This document shows positions 3,040 through 10,575 of a stretch of DNA of 39,050 nucleotides, one piece after another. The notes below the pieces were generated by a model that did not search any database, was not told where the DNA came from, and saw only the letters and a list, made by a program, of their open reading frames with translations. Within the stretch, counting starts at the first letter, position 1; each line of letters starts with the position of its first letter. The stretch lies in sequence record OZ035732.1. The stretch is one strand, 5' to 3'. Both the position numbers and the translations under genes were made by a program. This DNA is from Kayfunavirus PDP351P3.

Positions 3040-3062
3040 ACTTAACTATCACTATAGGGAAG
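3040..3062 (+). promoter_or_regulatory. phage RNAP promoter (phiOR-like, downstream of gene 19)
   Basis: ACTTAACTATCACTATA-GGGAAG; matches the 11-member promoter family of this genome; predicted +1 G at 3057. Confidence 0.7.
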
Positions 3063-3241: not shown

Positions 3242-3400
3242 ATGGCAAAGACCAAAGCTGTACTTAAAGCTCTGGCGACCAATCGAGCTACATACAGGTT
3301 TCTTACTGCTGTTCTACTTGCTGCTGGCGTTACTGCTGGAAGTCAGTGGGTCGGGTGGGTCGAGACTCTCGTATGTTCTCTGGTCTCTCAGTGTAATTAA
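3242..3400 (+). CDS. small hydrophobic protein (gene 19.5 position)
   Basis: 52-aa ORF with AGGAGG RBS, predicted TM segment (FLTAVLLAAGVTAG); position corresponds to T7 gene 19.5; no sequence match asserted. Confidence 0.4.
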   Translation: MAKTKAVLKALATNRATYRFLTAVLLAAGVTAGSQWVGWVETLVCSLVSQCN

Positions 3401-3561
3401 CGCAATCATGGTAACGATTCATGAGCGGAAGACCTAAGGTCAGTACGTGGATAAAGACTCACTCTACTGACCTTAGCTACTGTAGTCAAGGACTTTAGGT
3501 AACACCTTAAGAGAAGCTCACTTAGGGTCATCCTACTTATTGGTCTATCCTAGTGTCGCCT

Positions 3562-3602
3562 GACCTACGGTCCTTGACCTACAGTGGCTGTGGCCTACAG
3601 TA
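3562..3602 (+). repeat. short-repeat array (ACCTACRGT x3), candidate SRR-like repeats left of the terminal repeat
   Basis: GACCTACGGT, GACCTACAGT and GCCTACAGT within 40 bp. Confidence 0.5.
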
Positions 3603-3638
3603 GTGACGATGAGTTTGGACCAAAAGTTTGAGACCACA

Positions 3639-3840
3639 TCTCACAGTTCAAGAACCTCAAGTCTCCCCATAGGCCCTCTTTCAGTCCAGACCAAAGGCCC
3701 TACCCCAGTCTATCATAAGGTTGGACCGATGGTCAAGACGTTAGGTCGACGATAGGTCTAGGCTATGGCTTAGGGAAGGACGATAGGTTGGGACTATGGG
3801 TCTTCTTTGAGTCTCTATCTGTATCAGACCTTGAGTCACT
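3639..3840 (+). repeat. probable direct terminal repeat (single collapsed copy) containing the physical genome ends
   Basis: Begins with TCTCACAGT, the sequence that starts the T7 genome as I recall it; internal similarity to the T7 terminal repeat (TCCCCCATAGG, TCTCTATCTGT); flanked on both sides by ACCTACAGT arrays; boundaries approximate. Confidence 0.45.
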
Positions 3841-3925
3841 ACCTACAGTCTAACTACCTACAGTCTAACTACCTACAGTCATCGACCATCGGTACTGCCG
3901 CTACCTACAGTCAGAGACCTACAGT
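3836..3925 (+). repeat. short tandem repeat array (CTAACTACCTACAGT x3 plus 2 extra CCTACAGT), SRL-like
   Basis: Three tandem 15-bp units followed by two more CCTACAGT copies, directly right of the putative terminal repeat. Confidence 0.6.
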
Positions 3926-4036
3926 TAATAGACACAAAGGCTATAGACTTAAGGTCTAAGACATGTTAGTCAAAGACTATATCCTCTTACACCATGAGGC
4001 CGACGATAGCTTAATCAATATTATTTAAATTACCTA

Positions 4037-4065
4037 TTGACTATGGGTCTCGACTATGGCTTAAT
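4037..4065 (+). promoter_or_regulatory. candidate host sigma70 early promoter (A1-like)
   Basis: TTGACT-N17-CTTAAT; downstream sequence (CGTCAACACGACACGGCA) resembles the T7 A1 region as recalled. Confidence 0.4.
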
Positions 4066-4177
4066 AGCTTCCGTCAACACGACACGGCAACAACCGGATA
4101 GTGAAGACGCCGGGTCATCCCGGTTAAGTAGACAGCCTGCTAAGTCATACGAACAACAGGCAGATGACAGAAAGTAG

Positions 4178-4207
4178 TTGACAAGTAGTACAGACTTAAA
4201 GTAGTAT
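4178..4207 (+). promoter_or_regulatory. candidate host sigma70 early promoter (A3-like)
   Basis: TTGACA-N18-TAGTAT followed by GTACCACAT...CACTGAAA...CTCTTTAACAATCTGG, closely resembling the T7 A3 promoter and downstream leader as recalled. Confidence 0.5.
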
Positions 4208-4406
4208 GTACCACATCGAAACAACGGTGACGACCGACACTGAAACGGTCTACCTGAAGTCCTCTGACTGAAGGGAATGCTCTTTAACAATCTGGATAAA
4301 CTCTTAATGTGCGCCGATAGCGACTAACTACAGGGTCTTTGAGTCTACATCTGAAGGCCCTGACTGATAGTCACTAACACATACTTAACTTTGAGAGGAT
4401 ATAACT

Positions 4407-4916
4407 ATGGAACGTAACGCTAACGCATACTATGAGCTGCTGGCTGCAACTGTTGAAGCATTTAACGAGCGCATTCAGTACGACGAAATAGCTGAAGGCG
4501 ATGACTACTGCGATGCGCTGCATGAAGTCGTAGACGATATGGTTCCGCACTATTACCACGAGATTTTCACGGTGATGGCTGCCGATGGTATTGACCATGA
4601 GTTCGAAGACTCTGGGCTGATGCCTGAGACCAAGGACGTAACGTGTATACTACAAGCTCGCATCTATGAGGCACTGTATAATGATGTGTCTAATAGCTCG
4701 GATGTGGTATGGTTCGAGCCTGAAGAGGGCGACGAAAAGGCTGAATATTGGGTAGTTGATGCTAGAACAGGCGAGATAATTGAGCAAGCTGTATCACTTT
4801 ACGAGGCTATTGCATGTGCAAAAGACCTCTATGAGGCAGGTTTTCACATGCAGGTCGAAGACATCAATGATAACGTAGTGTTCGACCCTGCGTCTGCTGA
4901 GGAGGACTGCGAGTGA
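4407..4916 (+). CDS. ocr: Ocr-like DNA-mimic anti-restriction protein (gene 0.3) with about 55-aa C-terminal extension
   Basis: 169-aa highly acidic ORF; residues 1-105 align with recalled T7 Ocr ([43 protein letters not shown] vs [43 protein letters not shown]); first gene after the early promoters. Confidence 0.85.
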
Positions 4917-5071
4917 TAGTAACTTATGGTATCTGCCAGTATCACGTCAACATCGCCCGTATTATGGTCAAGACCGGGCAGTTAACGCACGATGCGGCTA
5001 TACGTCACCTGAAAGCGGTCTATAATGGCCGCAAGCGTATACACGACAGCTTACACGCTGAGGACAAGTAA
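4913..5071 (+). CDS. hypothetical early protein (52 aa, GTG start)
   Basis: GAGGAGG RBS 7 nt upstream of GTG; overlaps ocr stop; below the 60-aa ORF-track cutoff; no homolog recognised. Confidence 0.35.
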
Positions 5072-5072
5072 C

Positions 5073-5198
5073 ATGTACCAGATAACTTATAGCAGTGAAC
5101 AGGCGTTCTACGATGGGTGCTACGAGATGATGAAGCGCGGGGCTTGCTACGTGGCTAATCACCATAGCCTGACCATAACGCTGACAGGTGGCTACTAA
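5073..5198 (+). CDS. hypothetical early protein (41 aa)
   Basis: ATG with GAGGA RBS 7 nt upstream; MYQITYSSEQAFYDGCYEMMKRGACYVANHH...; no homolog recognised. Confidence 0.35.
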   Translation: MYQITYSSEQAFYDGCYEMMKRGACYVANHHSLTITLTGGY

Positions 5199-5274
5199 CT
5201 GCGAGTGATAGACGAGAGGTCATCGACTGATAGGTGGCCTCAAAGATTACCACTTGCATTAAGAGGAGTTAACT

Positions 5275-5364
5275 ATGAGTGTGGGACATTGGGTCTGCCT
5301 AGCGCCAGTTATCTGGATGATAGGCTATGGGATATACGACTGTATTAAACGGAAGTCACTATGA
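5275..5364 (+). CDS. hypothetical small membrane peptide (29 aa)
   Basis: AGAGGAG RBS; hydrophobic (WVCLAPVIWMIGYGIY); stop overlaps next start (ATGA). Confidence 0.25.
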   Translation: MSVGHWVCLAPVIWMIGYGIYDCIKRKSL

Positions 5365-5561
5365 TAGCTGCATTATTGATAGCCATAGGCTATGGACTTA
5401 TCGCCTACGTGCTGGTGAGAGACATCAACAAGGCACGTAAAGTCTACAAATTCAACTATGTGCGTCTGGGTCGCTGGACTGTACGTCAACCTAACGGACG
5501 ATTCATGCGCAACTTAGCGAACGTCTGGGATATAGCAACACTTGGGAGCAAACTACAATGA
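5361..5561 (+). CDS. hypothetical early protein with N-terminal TM segment (66 aa)
   Basis: ORF-track ORF; N-terminal hydrophobic helix MIAALLIAIGYGLIAYVLV followed by basic region; weak RBS. Confidence 0.5.
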   Translation: MIAALLIAIGYGLIAYVLVRDINKARKVYKFNYVRLGRWTVRQPNGRFMRNLANVWDIATLGSKLQ

Positions 5562-5884
5562 ACAAGTCATACGGGATTAATCTGGTACACTCTATGGACG
5601 CAGACATGCAAATGTTAAGCCTACTGGCTACCGGGTATCGTCACGGAACGTCAAGTCACTCCGCACGTCAACAGCAGGAGAGGGACCAGGTACTGCAAGC
5701 AAGACTCCGGGCTGAGGGCCATAAGTCCGAACTGATGTGTCTGGCGTATGGGGGACAACCAATCACCGAAGATGGTAAACTTCTGGTCTCAGGCTGGAGG
5801 GCGATAGACCAACGGTCAACCATCAAGCACACGACTCACGGTGACTTCAGCCATCTTCACGCTAACCCGCTGATATGCAAGTAA
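5558..5884 (+). CDS. hypothetical early protein (108 aa) at the position of T7 gene 0.7
   Basis: ORF-track ORF, translationally coupled (ATGA overlap); no kinase motifs visible; no homolog recognised. Confidence 0.55.
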   Translation: MNKSYGINLVHSMDADMQMLSLLATGYRHGTSSHSARQQQERDQVLQARLRAEGHKSELMCLAYGGQPITEDGKLLVSGWRAIDQRSTIKHTTHGDFSHLHANPLICK

Positions 5885-5889
5885 TTCTG

Positions 5890-5912
5890 ACTTAACTATC
5901 ACTATAGGACTC
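5890..5912 (+). promoter_or_regulatory. phage RNAP promoter immediately upstream of the RNA polymerase gene
   Basis: ACTTAACTATCACTATA-GGACTC; predicted +1 G at 5907; followed by repeat-rich leader (AAGTGAAAGAC x2, GACTTTAAGT x2). Confidence 0.7.
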
Positions 5913-5981
5913 AAGGTCTAAGACTCCAAGTGAAAGACCAAAGAGACTTTAAGTGAAAGACTAATAACAAGGACTTTAAGT

Positions 5982-8663
5982 ATGAGCGTCATATCTATTG
6001 ACAAACATGACTTCTCTGATGTGTCGAACGCTATTGAGCCGTTTAACCTGCTGGCCGACCACTATGGGCAAGACCTTGCAGTCAAACAGCTTCAGCTTGA
6101 GCATGAGGCATACACTGAAGGCGAGCGACGTTTCATCAAGAACCTTGAGCGACAGACTGAGCGCGGGGAACTGGCAGACAATCAGGTCGCCAAGCCTTTG
6201 ATGCAGACTCTTGTACCTAAGATTGCGCAAGCCGTCAGGGAGTGGCATGAAGGTCCAGACGGGAAGCTGTCAACCTCTCGTCCGAGCGTAGCGTTCACCA
6301 TGTTGAGCACTGAAGAGAAGGTCGTTAAAGACCGCTCTCTACGCATCTCCTGTGAGTCTGCTGCGGTTATCATACTGAAGGTCATCCTCTCCAAGCTTGT
6401 CAAGCCTGAAGGGATACCGATTACACCGATGGCCTCCGCGATAGGCCGTACACTTGAGGATGAAATCCGCTTCGGTCGCATCCGAGACAAGGAGCAGGAG
6501 CACTTCAAGAAGGCGATAGCTGAGAACCTGAACAAGCGAGCCGGCGCATCCTACAAGAAGGCCTACATGCAAGCTGTTGAGACATCCATGCTAGAGCAGG
6601 GTCAACTGGAAGATGCGTGGGGGACTTGGAGTCCGACCGAGGCTGTCCACGTTGGCATCAAGATGCTTGAGATTGTCATCCAGTCAACACAACTGGTCGA
6701 GCTTAAGCGCTACGGTGCTGGCAATGCAGCGGCTGACGTTGAGATGGTCCACCTGTCAGACTTCTGGGTAAAGAAGATGGCACAACGAGGATTCAGCCTT
6801 GCGGGTATCGCTCCGGTCTACCAACCTTGCGTCGTTCCACCTAAGCCGTGGACTGGTGTCGTAGGAGGTGGGTACTGGGCCAAAGGACGCAGACCACTAC
6901 CACTGATTCGCTTAGGGTCTAAGTCTGCGGTGGCACGTTACGAAGACGTGTACATGCCTGAAGTCTATGACGCTGTGAATATCATCCAGAATACGCCTTG
7001 GAAAGTGAACAAGAAGGTTCTGGACGTGGTGAACATGGTCGAGAAGCTGAATAACACGCCTATTGACGACATCCCTCAGATGGAACCACTGAAGCCTGAA
7101 GACTATGCGGGTGAGACTGAAGAGGAACTCAAGGCGTGGAAGAAGGCTGCTGCTGGTATCTACCGCCGAGAGAAGGCCCGGCAGTCACGCAGATTGTCAC
7201 TGAGCTTTATCGTTAACCAAGCGAACAAGTTCTCTCAGTTCAAGGCCATCTGGTTCCCGTACAACATGGACTGGCGAGGTCGCGTCTACGCTGTGCCGAT
7301 GTTCAACCCTCAGGGTAACGACATGCAAAAGGGTCTCCTGACTCTGGCAGTCGGTAAGCCTATTGGTGCTGATGGTTTCAAATGGCTGAAGGTCCACGGT
7401 GCAAACTGCGCGGGTATTGATAAAGTAACCTTCGAGGAGCGCATAAAGTGGGTTGAAGACAACCACGATAACATCATGGCTACCGCTAAGGCACCGATGG
7501 ACAGCATTGAGTGGTGGGGCAAGTTAGACTCTCCGTTCTGCTTCCTTGCGTTCTGCTTCGAGTATGCTGGCGTAATGTACCACGGTTTGTCTTACTCCTG
7601 TTCGCTGCCGATAGCTTTCGATGGGTCCTGCTCTGGGATTCAGCACTTTAGTGCGATGCTTCGTGATCACATCGGTGGACATGCGGTAAACCTGACGCCT
7701 TCCGGTAAGGTCCAAGACATTTACCGCATCGTGTCTGACCGCATTGAGGAGGAGCTTAAAGTCCTGCTGGTTAACGGTACGGATAACGAGATGGTGACTC
7801 ACGAGGACAAGAAAACGGGTGAGATTACCGAGCGTCTCAAGCTGGGGACACGAGAGCTGGCCCGTCAATGGCTGACATACGGTATGTCACGCAAGGTCAC
7901 TAAGCGCTCAGTAATGACTCTGGCCTACGGGTCGAAAGAGTATGGCTTCGCAGACCAAGTGTACGAGGACATCGTGATGCCAGCGATTGACTCAGGGTCT
8001 GGCGCTATGTTCACTGAGCCAAGCCAAGCGTCTCGCTTCATGGCTAAGATGATTTGGGAAGCTGTGAGCGTGACCGTAGTTGCTGCGGTAGACGCTATGA
8101 AGTGGCTTCAAGGTGCCGCCAAGCTGCTGGCTGCTGAAGTGAAGGACAAGAAGACTGGAGAAATCCTTAAGCCTTGCCTTCCGGTACACTGGGTCACACC
8201 TGATGGTTTCCCGGTCTGGCAGGAATACCGCAAGAAGGATACCACTCGTCTTAACCTGATGTTCTTAGGGTCATTCAACCTTCAGCCTACAGTCAATAAA
8301 GGCATGAAGAAAGAGCTGGACAAGCACAAGCAGGAGTCAGGCATTAGCCCGAACTTCGTCCACTCACAAGATGGTAGCCACCTCCGAAAGACTGTAGTCC
8401 ACACACATCGTAAGTACGGAGTGATGTCATTCGCAGTGATTCATGATAGCTTCGGGACCATCCCGGCTGACGCTGAGTATCTATTCCGTGGTGTCCGCGA
8501 GACGATGGTCGAGACCTACCGCGACAACGATGTGCTGCTTGACTTCTACGAGCAGTTTGAATACCAGCTTCATGAGAGCCAGCGCGACAAGCTGCCAGAG
8601 CTTCCGAAGAAAGGTAAACTGAATATCGAAGACATCTTGTCTTCAGACTTTGCATTCGCTTAA
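5982..8663 (+). CDS. single-subunit DNA-directed RNA polymerase (T7 gene 1-like)
   Basis: 893-aa ORF; long colinear identity blocks with recalled T7 RNAP (FPYNMDWRGRVYAV, MFNPQGNDM, DGSCSGIQHFSAMLRD, RSVTKRSVMTLAYGS, HDSFGT, terminal FAFA). Confidence 0.98.
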   Translation: MSVISIDKHDFSDVSNAIEPFNLLADHYGQDLAVKQLQLEHEAYTEGERRFIKNLERQTERGELADNQVAKPLMQTLVPKIAQAVREWHEGPDGKLSTSRPSVAFTMLSTEEKVVKDRSLRISCESAAVIILKVILSKLVKPEGIPITPMASAIGRTLEDEIRFGRIRDKEQEHFKKAIAENLNKRAGASYKKAYMQAVETSMLEQGQLEDAWGTWSPTEAVHVGIKMLEIVIQSTQLVELKRYGAGNAAADVEMVHLSDFWVKKMAQRGFSLAGIAPVYQPCVVPPKPWTGVVGGGYWAKGRRPLPLIRLGSKSAVARYEDVYMPEVYDAVNIIQNTPWKVNKKVLDVVNMVEKLNNTPIDDIPQMEPLKPEDYAGETEEELKAWKKAAAGIYRREKARQSRRLSLSFIVNQANKFSQFKAIWFPYNMDWRGRVYAVPMFNPQGNDMQKGLLTLAVGKPIGADGFKWLKVHGANCAGIDKVTFEERIKWVEDNHDNIMATAKAPMDSIEWWGKLDSPFCFLAFCFEYAGVMYHGLSYSCSLPIAFDGSCSGIQHFSAMLRDHIGGHAVNLTPSGKVQDIYRIVSDRIEEELKVLLVNGTDNEMVTHEDKKTGEITERLKLGTRELARQWLTYGMSRKVTKRSVMTLAYGSKEYGFADQVYEDIVMPAIDSGSGAMFTEPSQASRFMAKMIWEAVSVTVVAAVDAMKWLQGAAKLLAAEVKDKKTGEILKPCLPVHWVTPDGFPVWQEYRKKDTTRLNLMFLGSFNLQPTVNKGMKKELDKHKQESGISPNFVHSQDGSHLRKTVVHTHRKYGVMSFAVIHDSFGTIPADAEYLFRGVRETMVETYRDNDVLLDFYEQFEYQLHESQRDKLPELPKKGKLNIEDILSSDFAFA

Positions 8664-8675
8664 CAGGAGAGAGCT

Positions 8676-8891
8676 ATGAAATTTGCACACAAGCATACTG
8701 GCGTTAATGGCGGGACTCAAATCGTGACCGTAACAGAACACAACGGAAAGGGTCTGGTGAAGACCACGGTCATTCCTACCGAGATGTCAAAACAGCTTAA
8801 CGTCCCATTCAAGACCCTCGTCTATCTTGTGGAATCTAACCACGAGAAATACCTGAAAGACGCAGTGACCAAGCTGGAGCAGACCAAATGA
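8676..8891 (+). CDS. hypothetical protein (71 aa)
   Basis: ORF-track ORF with AGGAGAGAG RBS directly after gene 1; no homolog recognised. Confidence 0.5.
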   Translation: MKFAHKHTGVNGGTQIVTVTEHNGKGLVKTTVIPTEMSKQLNVPFKTLVYLVESNHEKYLKDAVTKLEQTK

Positions 8892-8965
8892 CAGACCTAC
8901 AGTTGCTGGCCTTGTGGCTGGGAGCACTCGCAGTATTCACTTTAATCCAGCGCAGAAGAGGTTAA

Positions 8966-8988
8966 CCTAAACTATCACTATAGGATTA
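8966..8988 (+). promoter_or_regulatory. phage RNAP promoter (phi1.1-like; candidate primary replication origin region)
   Basis: CCTAAACTATCACTATA-GGATTA; position after gene 1 corresponds to T7 phi1.1A/B, which flank the primary origin. Confidence 0.75.
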
Positions 8989-9030
8989 GACTCAAGGTCA
9001 TGACTCAAAGTCGTGGCCTTCATGATTAAC
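8985..9030 (+). promoter_or_regulatory. conserved structured RNA element copy 2 (putative RNase III site R1.1-like)
   Basis: AGACTCAAGGTCAT-[GACT caa AGTC hairpin]-GTGGCCTTCATGATTA; upper hairpin differs from copies 1 and 3 by compensatory changes. Confidence 0.5.
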
Positions 9031-9060
9031 CCTAATAAACACTACTGGAGATTTAACCGT

Positions 9061-9240
9061 ATGTATCAGAACACTATCAACTTCGAGCGCATCCGTGAAC
9101 GTCAGCAGACTGAAGGTTACATTCCTAAGGGACGCAAGCTGAACAAGACTAAACGTGGTGGTGGCGTGAAGGGTGCTTTCCGTAATGCTGAGGGCAAAGA
9201 CTCTATGGTCAACCAAGAGAAGTATTTCGTAGGAGCATAA
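9061..9240 (+). CDS. gp1.1-like small basic protein
   Basis: ATG 9061 with GGAG RBS 9 nt upstream (track ORF 9013 starts at a GTG inside the RNA element); contains GRKLNKTKR as in recalled T7 gp1.1. Confidence 0.6.
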   Translation: MYQNTINFERIRERQQTEGYIPKGRKLNKTKRGGGVKGAFRNAEGKDSMVNQEKYFVGA

Positions 9241-9244
9241 AAGT

Positions 9245-9496
9245 ATGAGCAGACGTTGGTTATTCGATGCATCCACGAGCCAGTGGTCAGCGTTAGGCCG
9301 GACTCACCGCGAGATGAGTGAGGCAGGACTTGATGTCCTAATGGATGACTCGCCGTGCTCAGGAAAAACTCTGGTCAGAATAATTGAAGCAGACGGTGGG
9401 AGGCTTCTGGTCTCCAGAGAATTTACCGAAGATGAAATCTTTAACTGTGAGCAATGGTGCTTACAACAATTGAACGCTTATAGGAGCTGGAAATAA
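9245..9496 (+). CDS. gp1.2-like protein (candidate inhibitor of host dGTPase)
   Basis: 83-aa ORF at gene 1.2 position; pattern similarity to recalled T7 gp1.2 (R..IED..G.L...F..E..FN.C..WL, terminal WK). Confidence 0.55.
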   Translation: MSRRWLFDASTSQWSALGRTHREMSEAGLDVLMDDSPCSGKTLVRIIEADGGRLLVSREFTEDEIFNCEQWCLQQLNAYRSWK

Positions 9497-10575
9497 TGAC
9501 TACTACTCTCAAGACCAACCCGCACCGCGCTGTAGATTACTCTGAGTCTGGCATTAAGAAGGCACTGGAGGCAGCAGGGTCTCTGGAAGCTGAGGTGAAG
9601 TACGATGGTGTGCGCCTGAATCTCCCGGTCCTGCGTGAAGGTGAGACCTACTGGCTGAGCCGTGAGTCGAAACCCCTGCCTGCCTTGGAATGGATGAACT
9701 CTGAGTTAGGTAATGCGTGGACCCAAGCTGACTGGCGCTGGTTCCTACGTCAAGCTGGATACGAAGGCGTGGGCCTGATGATTGACGGAGAGGTAATGGT
9801 CAAAGGCGTTGACTTCAACACCTCCTCAGGTCTCATCCGAACGAAGTGGCTGAAGCCTAGCAACGAGGAGTTCGCCGCTGTATGCTATCCGGGCCGTGGC
9901 AAGAAGGTCCCGTTCTGGGTCGCCCGGTCACGACTTCAGGTTGTTGTATACGGTGTCGTAGACATGACAACCATTGCTGACCCGAAAGCCGAAGGTCCTA
10001 TCCATAGCGTAACCCGACTGAAGGCCGAAGCTATCGTCCCTCTACTTCAGAAATACTTCCCGGAAATCGACTGGGTTCTGTCTGAGTCACACACGGTCTA
10101 TGACCTTGAGTCGCTCAACTCCCTGTACGAAGAGAAGCGTCTGGAAGGACATGAGGGTCTGGTAGTCAAGGACCCACTTGGTAAGTGGAAGCGTGGCAAG
10201 AAGTCAGGCATGTGGAAAATGAAGCCTGAGGATACCATCGACGGGACCGTATGCGGACTCGTGTGGGGGACTCCGGGTAAGGCCAACGAAGGTAAGGTGA
10301 TTGGCTTTGAGGTGCTGCTTGAGGATGGCATGGTGGTCAATGCTTGTGGCCTGACTGAAGAACAGAAGGACGAGTTCACGGCAGAAGTATTTAACCGCAA
10401 TGGGATTGACTCCCAGCGCGAGTACGAGGAATTGCTTTGTATTGAGACTTTCAACCCTTACGGCGGGTGGCAGTGTGAAGTCCTCTTCATGGAGCGGTTC
10501 CCTGATGGTTCCTTACGTCACCCTAGCTTCAAGTGCTGGCGCGGGACGGAAGATAACCCGACCATTAAGAGCTAA
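9496..10575 (+). CDS. ATP-dependent DNA ligase (T7 gene 1.3-like)
   Basis: 359-aa ORF; KTNP..AV...ES.IKKAL, adenylation motif E-KYDGVR, EGHEGLVVKDP, KRGKKSGMWKMKPE, DGSLRHPSF.RGTEDNP match recalled T7 ligase. Confidence 0.95.
   Translation: MTTTLKTNPHRAVDYSESGIKKALEAAGSLEAEVKYDGVRLNLPVLREGETYWLSRESKPLPALEWMNSELGNAWTQADWRWFLRQAGYEGVGLMIDGEVMVKGVDFNTSSGLIRTKWLKPSNEEFAAVCYPGRGKKVPFWVARSRLQVVVYGVVDMTTIADPKAEGPIHSVTRLKAEAIVPLLQKYFPEIDWVLSESHTVYDLESLNSLYEEKRLEGHEGLVVKDPLGKWKRGKKSGMWKMKPEDTIDGTVCGLVWGTPGKANEGKVIGFEVLLEDGMVVNACGLTEEQKDEFTAEVFNRNGIDSQREYEELLCIETFNPYGGWQCEVLFMERFPDGSLRHPSFKCWRGTEDNPTIKS

Follow-up and report, generated by a model that had tools for sequence, protein, structure and literature searches.

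The stretch of DNA considered here, a 39,050 nt record from Kayfunavirus PDP351P3 (OZ035732.1; hereafter the window, with all coordinates given on the whole stretch), raises the question of what the small genes located between its ocr gene and its RNA polymerase gene represent. Where T7 encodes genes 0.4–0.7, this interval (4913–5884) contains five small open reading frames (ORFs) of 52, 41, 29, 66, and 108 amino acids (aa), and we could confirm the sizes and coordinates given for them in a preliminary description of this DNA. That description had correctly placed them among the early genes of a T7-group phage, but it had also presented them as replacements of T7 0.4–0.6 that match nothing, a view which fails for the 52-aa ORF, a diverged relative of T7 gp0.4, and for the 66-aa ORF, a member of the T3 gp0.6 family. 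We consider it probable that the five ORFs constitute a Kayfunavirus block of class I (early) accessory genes, arranged on the T7/T3 plan but with a partly different gene set. The window belongs to Kayfunavirus (K1F-like, T7 group; Studiervirinae), for which an early accessory block of this kind is ordinary and has been widely sequenced. A megablast search with positions 4300–6000 returned 280 phage records, nearly all of the matches listed being Kayfunavirus, and the best match listed, Providencia phage EPr2, is 91.6% identical over 100% of the query. Since the EPr2 record annotates the same five coding sequences (CDS) between Ocr and RNA polymerase, all as hypothetical and two of them labeled with a transmembrane domain, it is evident that the block was already contained in many genome sequences, with its genes recorded as hypothetical. 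Each of the five ORFs also has homologues in many further GenBank relatives.

All features of the block lie on the plus strand between two anchors. Upstream, ocr (gene 0.3; 4407–4916) encodes the DNA-mimic anti-restriction protein and is recognized by Pfam PF08684 (E 4e-30) and phrog_2568 (E 2e-55), while downstream, gene 1 (5982–8663) encodes a T7-type single-subunit RNA polymerase of 893 aa, with 97.5% identity to K1F gene 1.0 over its first 200 residues. The five small ORFs in between are real, conserved genes. Nei-Gojobori ratios of nonsynonymous to synonymous substitution (dN/dS), calculated against all distinct ungapped relatives among the related loci that we fetched, were 0.51, 0.11, 0.17, 0.11, and 0.19 for the 52-, 41-, 29-, 66-, and 108-aa ORFs, respectively, with ocr (0.27) and the polymerase N-terminus (0.05) for comparison. 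In the named frames, none of the five contains a stop in any homologue, whereas the other two frames yield ratios of 0.9–5 and always contain stops. As purifying selection is confined to the named frames, which are also stop-free, all five ORFs must be regarded as genes. Furthermore, every start either has a Shine-Dalgarno-like motif ahead of it or overlaps the stop codon of the gene before it. The ocr/52-aa overlap is GTGA, the 52-aa stop and the 41-aa start are separated by 1 nt, and the 29/66 and 66/108 junctions are both ATGA overlaps, whereas the 41-aa ORF is followed by a 76-nt gap containing a conserved hairpin. The preliminary description had considered all five ORFs to be translationally coupled. 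This is true within ocr/52/41 and within 29/66/108, but not across the hairpin gap, and because the gap holds a homologue of R0.5 (see below), the block consists of two coupled groups rather than one. The resulting order, ocr, 0.4-like, 41-aa / R0.5 / membrane mini-gene, 0.6-like, 108-aa / gene 1, parallels that of T7, which is 0.3, 0.4 / R0.5 / 0.5, 0.6, 0.7 / 1.

The hairpin itself (5200–5258) has a predicted folding energy of -28.4 kcal/mol (z -2.4) and aligns to the annotated RNase III sites R0.5 of T3 and R0.45 of phiYeO3-12, as well as to the R0.5 region of T7. Its consensus structure comprises 21 predicted pairs, four of which exhibit compensatory changes, and 29 columns of the alignment are invariant. 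Like R0.5 of T7 and T3, it lies between 0.4-type and 0.5/0.6-type genes, with the arms AGTG.TA.AC...AGG.C and GTGGCCT..A.GATTA.CA.T invariant, and it is kept in relatives regardless of which gene follows it. Judged by these similarities, the element is plainly a homologue of the T7/T3 R0.5 RNase III site. An Rfam search of positions 3500–9500 returned no match.

The connection to T7 is most direct in the case of the 52-aa ORF (4913–5071), which begins with a GTG start. Clear homology to T7 gp0.4–0.6, which by the preliminary description's own terms would speak against it, is present in this ORF, profile-profile comparison by hhalign, with family alignments built from the fetched loci, yielding probabilities of 90–92%. 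The 52-aa and T7 gp0.4 families align with a probability of 92% (E 6e-7), and in a matrix of six Kayfunavirus by five T7 families, the 52-aa/gp0.4 pair was the sole positive (90%), the other 29 pairs remaining at or below 1.4%. In a single pairwise blastp comparison, the 52-aa ORF is 32% identical to T7 gp0.4 over 41 aa (E 4e-4). T7 gp0.4 also matches phrog_5058, the family of the 52-aa ORF, at 9e-5, the 52-aa ORF matches phrog_7202, the family of T7 gp0.4, at 0.014, and phrog_25044 is matched by both. Two intermediates from other genera provide transitive links, namely NahiliMali gp2 (4e-8 to the 52-aa ORF and 2e-6 to T7 gp0.4) and gp03 of Pectobacterium phage PP47 (2e-7 and 2e-10, respectively), the latter of which carries the annotation "putative cell division FtsZ inhibitor". 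SRT7 gp46 matches the 52-aa ORF as well. In NahiliMali and SRT7, the gp0.4-like homologue is located directly 3' of gene 0.3, and in PP47, one small gene (gp02) separates the two. Like T7 gp0.4, the 52-aa protein is about 50 aa long, is encoded upstream of R0.5 by a gene whose start overlaps the gene 0.3 stop, and carries the motif YG[LI]...V.....MV..G...x..[AM]..LK..Y...K.I, whereas unlike in T7, the 41-aa gene intervenes between the gp0.4-like gene and the hairpin. Descent of the 52-aa ORF from gp0.4 is thus well supported. In 2013, Kiro and colleagues reportedly identified T7 gp0.4 as an FtsZ inhibitor, and it is a reasonable inference that the 52-aa protein inhibits FtsZ as well. In CHX131 (PV611674), the gp0.4-like ORF at 1118–1276 carries the misleading label "NinH protein".

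The 66-aa ORF (5361–5561) provides a second link, in this instance to T3. In K1F, its homologue bears the name gene 0.6, and by blastp the ORF is 40% identical to T3 gp0.6 over 60 aa and 43% identical to gp13 of Klebsiella phage K74. When the 66-aa family was compared by hhalign to an alignment of gp0.6 from T3, phiYeO3-12, K74, NahiliMali, PP47, and SRT7, the probability was 98.2% (E 5e-14). The protein contains one membrane helix, with a Kyte-Doolittle 15-residue maximum of 2.49 at residues 5–19, followed by a basic tail (pI 11.0) with the motif TVRxPNGRF. With T3-type gp0.6 in general, it shares the N-terminal hydrophobic anchor, RD[FI]xK, and TVRxPNGRF..N....[VI]AT, and with T3 gp0.6 and phiYeO3-12 gp0.6A in particular, a length of about 65 aa, an anchor preceding RDFxKG/RDIxKA, TVRxPNGRF..N, and a position after R0.5. 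By its sequence, the 66-aa ORF is therefore assigned to the T3/phiYeO3-12 gp0.6 family. Unlike T3 gp0.6, which ends at ATH, it has the C-terminal extension LGSKLQ, and no frameshift-derived 0.6B form is evident for the gene.

The first gene after the hairpin, the 29-aa ORF (5275–5364), is preceded by a stronger ribosome-binding site, AAGAGGAG, than any of the other four and is stop-free in 11 of 11 relatives. Its product has one membrane helix (Kyte-Doolittle 15-residue maximum 1.76), so the preliminary description was right that two of the five ORFs, this one and the 66-aa ORF, have predicted membrane helices. The slot itself is variable. Some relatives carry a 55-aa membrane gene here, as in K1F, some carry both genes, and one of the fetched loci (L025) carries a true gp0.5-like gene instead. 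The 29-aa ORF is thus one of several interchangeable membrane mini-genes. Like T7 gp0.5, a membrane protein of 47 aa, the product is small, hydrophobic, and the first to be encoded after R0.5, but it has one helix rather than two and no sequence relation to gp0.5, hhalign giving the 29-aa family a probability of 0.1% and the 55-aa family of K1F one of 0.3%.

The two remaining genes encode strongly constrained orphan proteins. The 41-aa ORF (5073–5198), which is absent from T7 and T3, is under the tightest constraint of all five (pN 0.04 versus pS 0.29), and its product is 100% identical at the amino acid level in many phages whose neighboring genes are 70–80% identical. Its close relatives number only 18 in a word-based search, while hhalign connects it to SRT7 gp45 (Foetvirus) and to gp12 of Klebsiella phage K74 with a probability of 97.9%, compared with at most 1.4% for controls. 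The C-terminus LTxxLxGGY is invariant and typically reads SLT[IV]TLTGGY. No Pfam or PDB relatives of the protein were found. In six of the fetched loci (L012, L013, and L018–L021), ocr and the gp0.4-like gene are both lacking, and other genes separate the 41-aa gene from the gp0.6-like gene, which lies approximately 1.0–1.4 kb downstream of it. This arrangement indicates that the early region is mosaic.

The 108-aa ORF (5558–5884) encodes a basic protein and is the longest ORF between ocr and gene 1. Its family comprises 153 clusters of relatives at the 90% level, none of them with a Pfam domain, and the complete contigs encoding them are all phage-sized at about 39–40 kb. A profile hidden Markov model of the family searched against 1.84 billion representatives matched only 14 proteins, none of which was informative. 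Distant relatives share ER..VL..R..AEG....M..YGG.P...DGKLL......A..QR..I.HT..GDF.HL, whereas the first ~26 residues are variable, with short forms of about 83–86 aa and long forms of 130–139 aa. AlphaFold2 (AF2) predictions reached a mean pLDDT of 56 with a shallow alignment and 71 once distant members were added. The model consists of an N-terminal helix, a three-helix core (pLDDT ~85–90, residues 41–80), and a low-confidence tail. This tail, HTxxGDFxHLxxxPLIxK, ranks with the best-conserved parts of the protein, yet it is unstructured in the model. EcoDS1 Gp0.38 and a hypothetical protein of Citrobacter phage CR8 belong to the 108-aa family by both sequence and predicted fold (Foldseek E 8e-9 and 4e-3, respectively), differing from the 108-aa protein in the length of their N-terminal regions. 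A zinc site was considered and rejected because the cysteines are not conserved among relatives, and a relationship to T3 gp0.65, to the C-terminus of gp0.7, or to gp0.6B was rejected as well (hhalign probability below 1%). The motif NL[VI]HALD, found in the long forms of the family (residues 7–15 here, 5576–5602), recurs in the N-terminal extension that the gp0.4-like PP47 gp03 carries (1357–1500 of its fetched locus, L058), which suggests that modules may be shuffled among early proteins.

Searches of Pfam, NCBIfam, PADLOC, and PDB sequences with all five proteins and their family profiles returned nothing significant. Profile comparison by hhalign placed the 52-, 66-, and 41-aa proteins, and fold searches with the 108-aa protein gave no informative match. 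The preliminary description had recognized that the region encodes no protein kinase, and this is indeed the case for the whole window, in which T7 gp0.7 has no homologue by tblastn (best E 1.1). The name "protein kinase" is nonetheless attached to the ocr homologue in some related records, where it is misplaced. For example, CDS 925–1428 of LM33_P1 (LT594300), annotated as "phage protein kinase", is 79% identical to the ocr of the window, and beneath the matches to the 52-aa ORF, two further records list "protein kinase" as their only feature and a third lists it beside a hypothetical protein.

A scheme for the function of the block can be proposed from these homologies. The host RNA polymerase would transcribe it from sigma-70-type promoters upstream of ocr, where sigma-70-like sequences are present (e.g., TTGACA-18-TAGTAT at 4178–4207), and the R0.5-type hairpin would split the transcript into one mRNA for ocr and the 52- and 41-aa proteins and another for the 29-, 66-, and 108-aa proteins, with the genes of each unit presumably being translationally coupled. 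The 52-aa product is predicted, by homology, to form two antiparallel helices that would dock onto FtsZ at its synergy-loop face and prevent polymerization of the Z-ring, giving rise to filamentous cells. The 66-aa product would be a T3-type gp0.6, anchored in the membrane with a basic cytoplasmic tail, and the 29-aa product would be one of several interchangeable inner-membrane peptides encoded at its slot. The 41- and 108-aa products would most probably bind a host protein conserved across the Enterobacterales, with the invariant, unstructured C-terminal tail as the likely binding element of the latter.

Several points weigh against this reading of the block. Early expression and processing by RNase III are both deduced from homology alone. 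No R1 site is claimed for the 97-nt spacer preceding gene 1 (5885–5981), as it does not align to R1 of T7 or T3 and its fold is not better than those of shuffled sequences (z -0.5). In the K1F reference (NC_007456), the copy of the 108-aa gene (2205–2468) contains an in-frame TAG at codon 13, is unannotated, and retains only a 65-aa GTG ORF, which implies that the gene is dispensable in the K1F laboratory strain or that the sequence is in error. For the 66-aa family, hhalign to T7 gp0.6A, the MreB inhibitor, gave a probability of 0.4%. The corresponding value for the T3-type family was 0.9%, which leaves a link between T3-type gp0.6 and T7 gp0.6A unsupported, and only 13 C-terminal residues of the former resemble the latter. 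Because the two are not demonstrably related, no function can be transferred to the 66-aa protein, and we know of no function for T3-type gp0.6 itself. Lastly, three points concern the 52-aa protein: its gene has the highest dN/dS of the five, both gp0.4 alignments are of low diversity (Neff ~1.4), which accounts for their modest profile-profile probability, and T7 W28 is replaced by histidine both here and in all aligned non-T7-type relatives.

The last of these points bears on one alternative, in which the 52-aa protein derives from gp0.4 but has changed its target, and the filamentation seen with K1F-type phages is caused by another early product, for example the membrane-anchored gp0.6-like protein or a membrane mini-peptide. 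In T7 Gp0.4, residues V15, V22, W28, M32, L35, and Y39 are needed for FtsZ inhibition, and substitution of W28 by L or A abolishes FtsZ binding (PMC13423816). The equivalent residues in the 52-aa protein are V12, V19, H26, I30, L33, and Y37. With an essential tryptophan replaced by histidine, FtsZ binding by the 52-aa protein is not assured. Of the six residues of T7 gp0.4 needed to activate CapRel-Ebc, K36 is identical (K34), R23 is conservatively replaced (K20), and the other four are changed. Overall identity to T7 gp0.4 is only about 32%. The histidine, the relatively relaxed selection on the gene, and the changes in most of the CapRel-contact residues all favor a changed target, as does the ability of other small membrane peptides, lambda Kil among them, to inhibit division (PMC9372555). 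Even so, we regard a changed target as rather unlikely. Four of the six FtsZ-contact positions are identical and a fifth, M to I, is conservative (M being retained in most relatives), the histidine is common to the very relatives that link the 52-aa protein to T7 gp0.4, one of these, PP47 gp03, bears the FtsZ inhibitor annotation, and size and synteny are conserved.

Descent from gp0.4 with FtsZ as the predicted target also has a bearing on K1F, which was reported in 2022 to lack 0.4 genes, yet its infection produced multi-ring filaments (PMC9372555). These filaments lend indirect support to FtsZ inhibition by the gp0.4-like protein. K1F does carry a copy of the 52-aa ORF (1620–1772), and the absence of a direct blastp match between this copy and T7 gp0.4 would explain why 0.4 was reported as missing. 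The diverged gp0.4 of K1F-type phages simply escapes plain BLAST. The claim that K1F requires a novel FtsZ inhibitor (PMC9372555) is therefore now testable. Furthermore, the tryptophan-to-histidine exchange and the altered CapRel-contact surface constitute a natural variant for studying both gp0.4–FtsZ binding and evasion of the CapRel-Ebc sensor.

A second alternative, closer to the preliminary description, is that the five ORFs are new, unrelated anti-defense factors that have replaced T7 0.4–0.7. The block does adjoin ocr, it lies in a region that is mosaic among relatives, as is typical of accessory and anti-defense regions, and its 41-, 29-, and 108-aa proteins have no relative of known function. 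In addition, an accessory-gene screen by Silas et al. obtained defense-related phenotypes from ocr-neighboring genes of other phages (bioRxiv 10.1101/2023.04.06.535777). Nevertheless, we find it unlikely for the block as a whole, because two of the five proteins fall into named T7-group families (gp0.4 and T3 gp0.6), gp0.4 is a host-takeover rather than an anti-defense factor, and no tested anti-defense protein resembles any of the five. Five exact motifs from the 41-, 52-, 66-, and 108-aa proteins were absent among the 200 screened accessory genes in the supplements of Silas et al., and their orf24, which also adjoins ocr, is a different protein from those described here. A search of the literature found no function assigned to these Kayfunavirus early genes. 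A more limited proposal may be advanced tentatively, as possible if on balance doubtful: the 41-aa protein, the 108-aa protein, or both would inhibit a host defense or takeover target by an undescribed mechanism and, as a distinct matter, the "missing" FtsZ inhibitor of K1F would be the 52-aa protein, with His in place of Trp. The 41- and 108-aa proteins have no known fold relatives and are found only in T7-group phages of Enterobacterales. Being compact and strongly constrained, they are reasonable candidates for host-takeover and anti-defense screens.

A third alternative assigns to the 108-aa protein the kinase-independent host-shutoff role of gp0.7. Like gp0.7 in T7, its gene is the last early gene before gene 1, the genome is without a kinase, and the protein combines a basic character with a conserved tail that may serve in binding. 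This argument is solely positional, whereas neither sequence nor profile comparison relates the protein to gp0.7 or to the C-terminus of gp0.7 (probability 0.3%), and the K1F reference copy of the gene is interrupted, all of which makes such a role very improbable.

It is more improbable still that some of the ORFs shorter than 60 aa are untranslated annotation noise, since, although ORFs of 29–52 aa often arise by chance and a spurious neighbor of 47 aa is present, dN/dS values of 0.11–0.51 occur in the named frames only, homologues are stop-free, each ORF has a ribosome-binding site or coupled start, and the 41-aa protein is 100% conserved despite a pS of 0.29. The preliminary description had likewise treated the small ORFs as genuine. 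The 47-aa neighbor, a sixth ORF with a GTG start (5205–5348), extends across the R0.5 hairpin into the 29-aa gene, which it overlaps in a different frame. It matches phrog_36394 at 1e-33. With a dN/dS of 0.88 and stops in half of its relatives (stop-free in only three of six), it does not qualify as a gene, and the phrog_36394 family looks spurious.

At its downstream end, the block is followed by a promoter for the phage RNA polymerase (5893–5910, plus strand), one of 10 copies of the consensus AACTATCACTATAGGxA in the window, all on the plus strand, compared with 0.02 expected. The others are located at 3043, 8969, 10664, 11532, 20204, 23404, 24383, 28931, and 36207. T7 has no such promoter directly upstream of its polymerase gene, and the presence of one directly 5' of gene 1 here suggests that the phage polymerase may be positively autoregulated. 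In 16 of the related loci that were fetched, the spacer containing this promoter is 97–100% identical from end to end, which exceeds the conservation of the flanking genes.

Some further features concern the DNA upstream of the block. The genome is circularly permuted in the window, and the promoter copy at 3043 precedes a small ORF (3243–3401), the position of which is reminiscent of that of T7 gene 19.5. It is followed by the non-coding left end with its host-type promoters (~3400–4400). Upstream of these early promoters, the left end contains a perfect 15-nt tandem repeat, ACTACCTACAGTCTA, in 2.9 copies (3838–3880), as well as two shorter repeats at 3520–3552 and 3737–3758.

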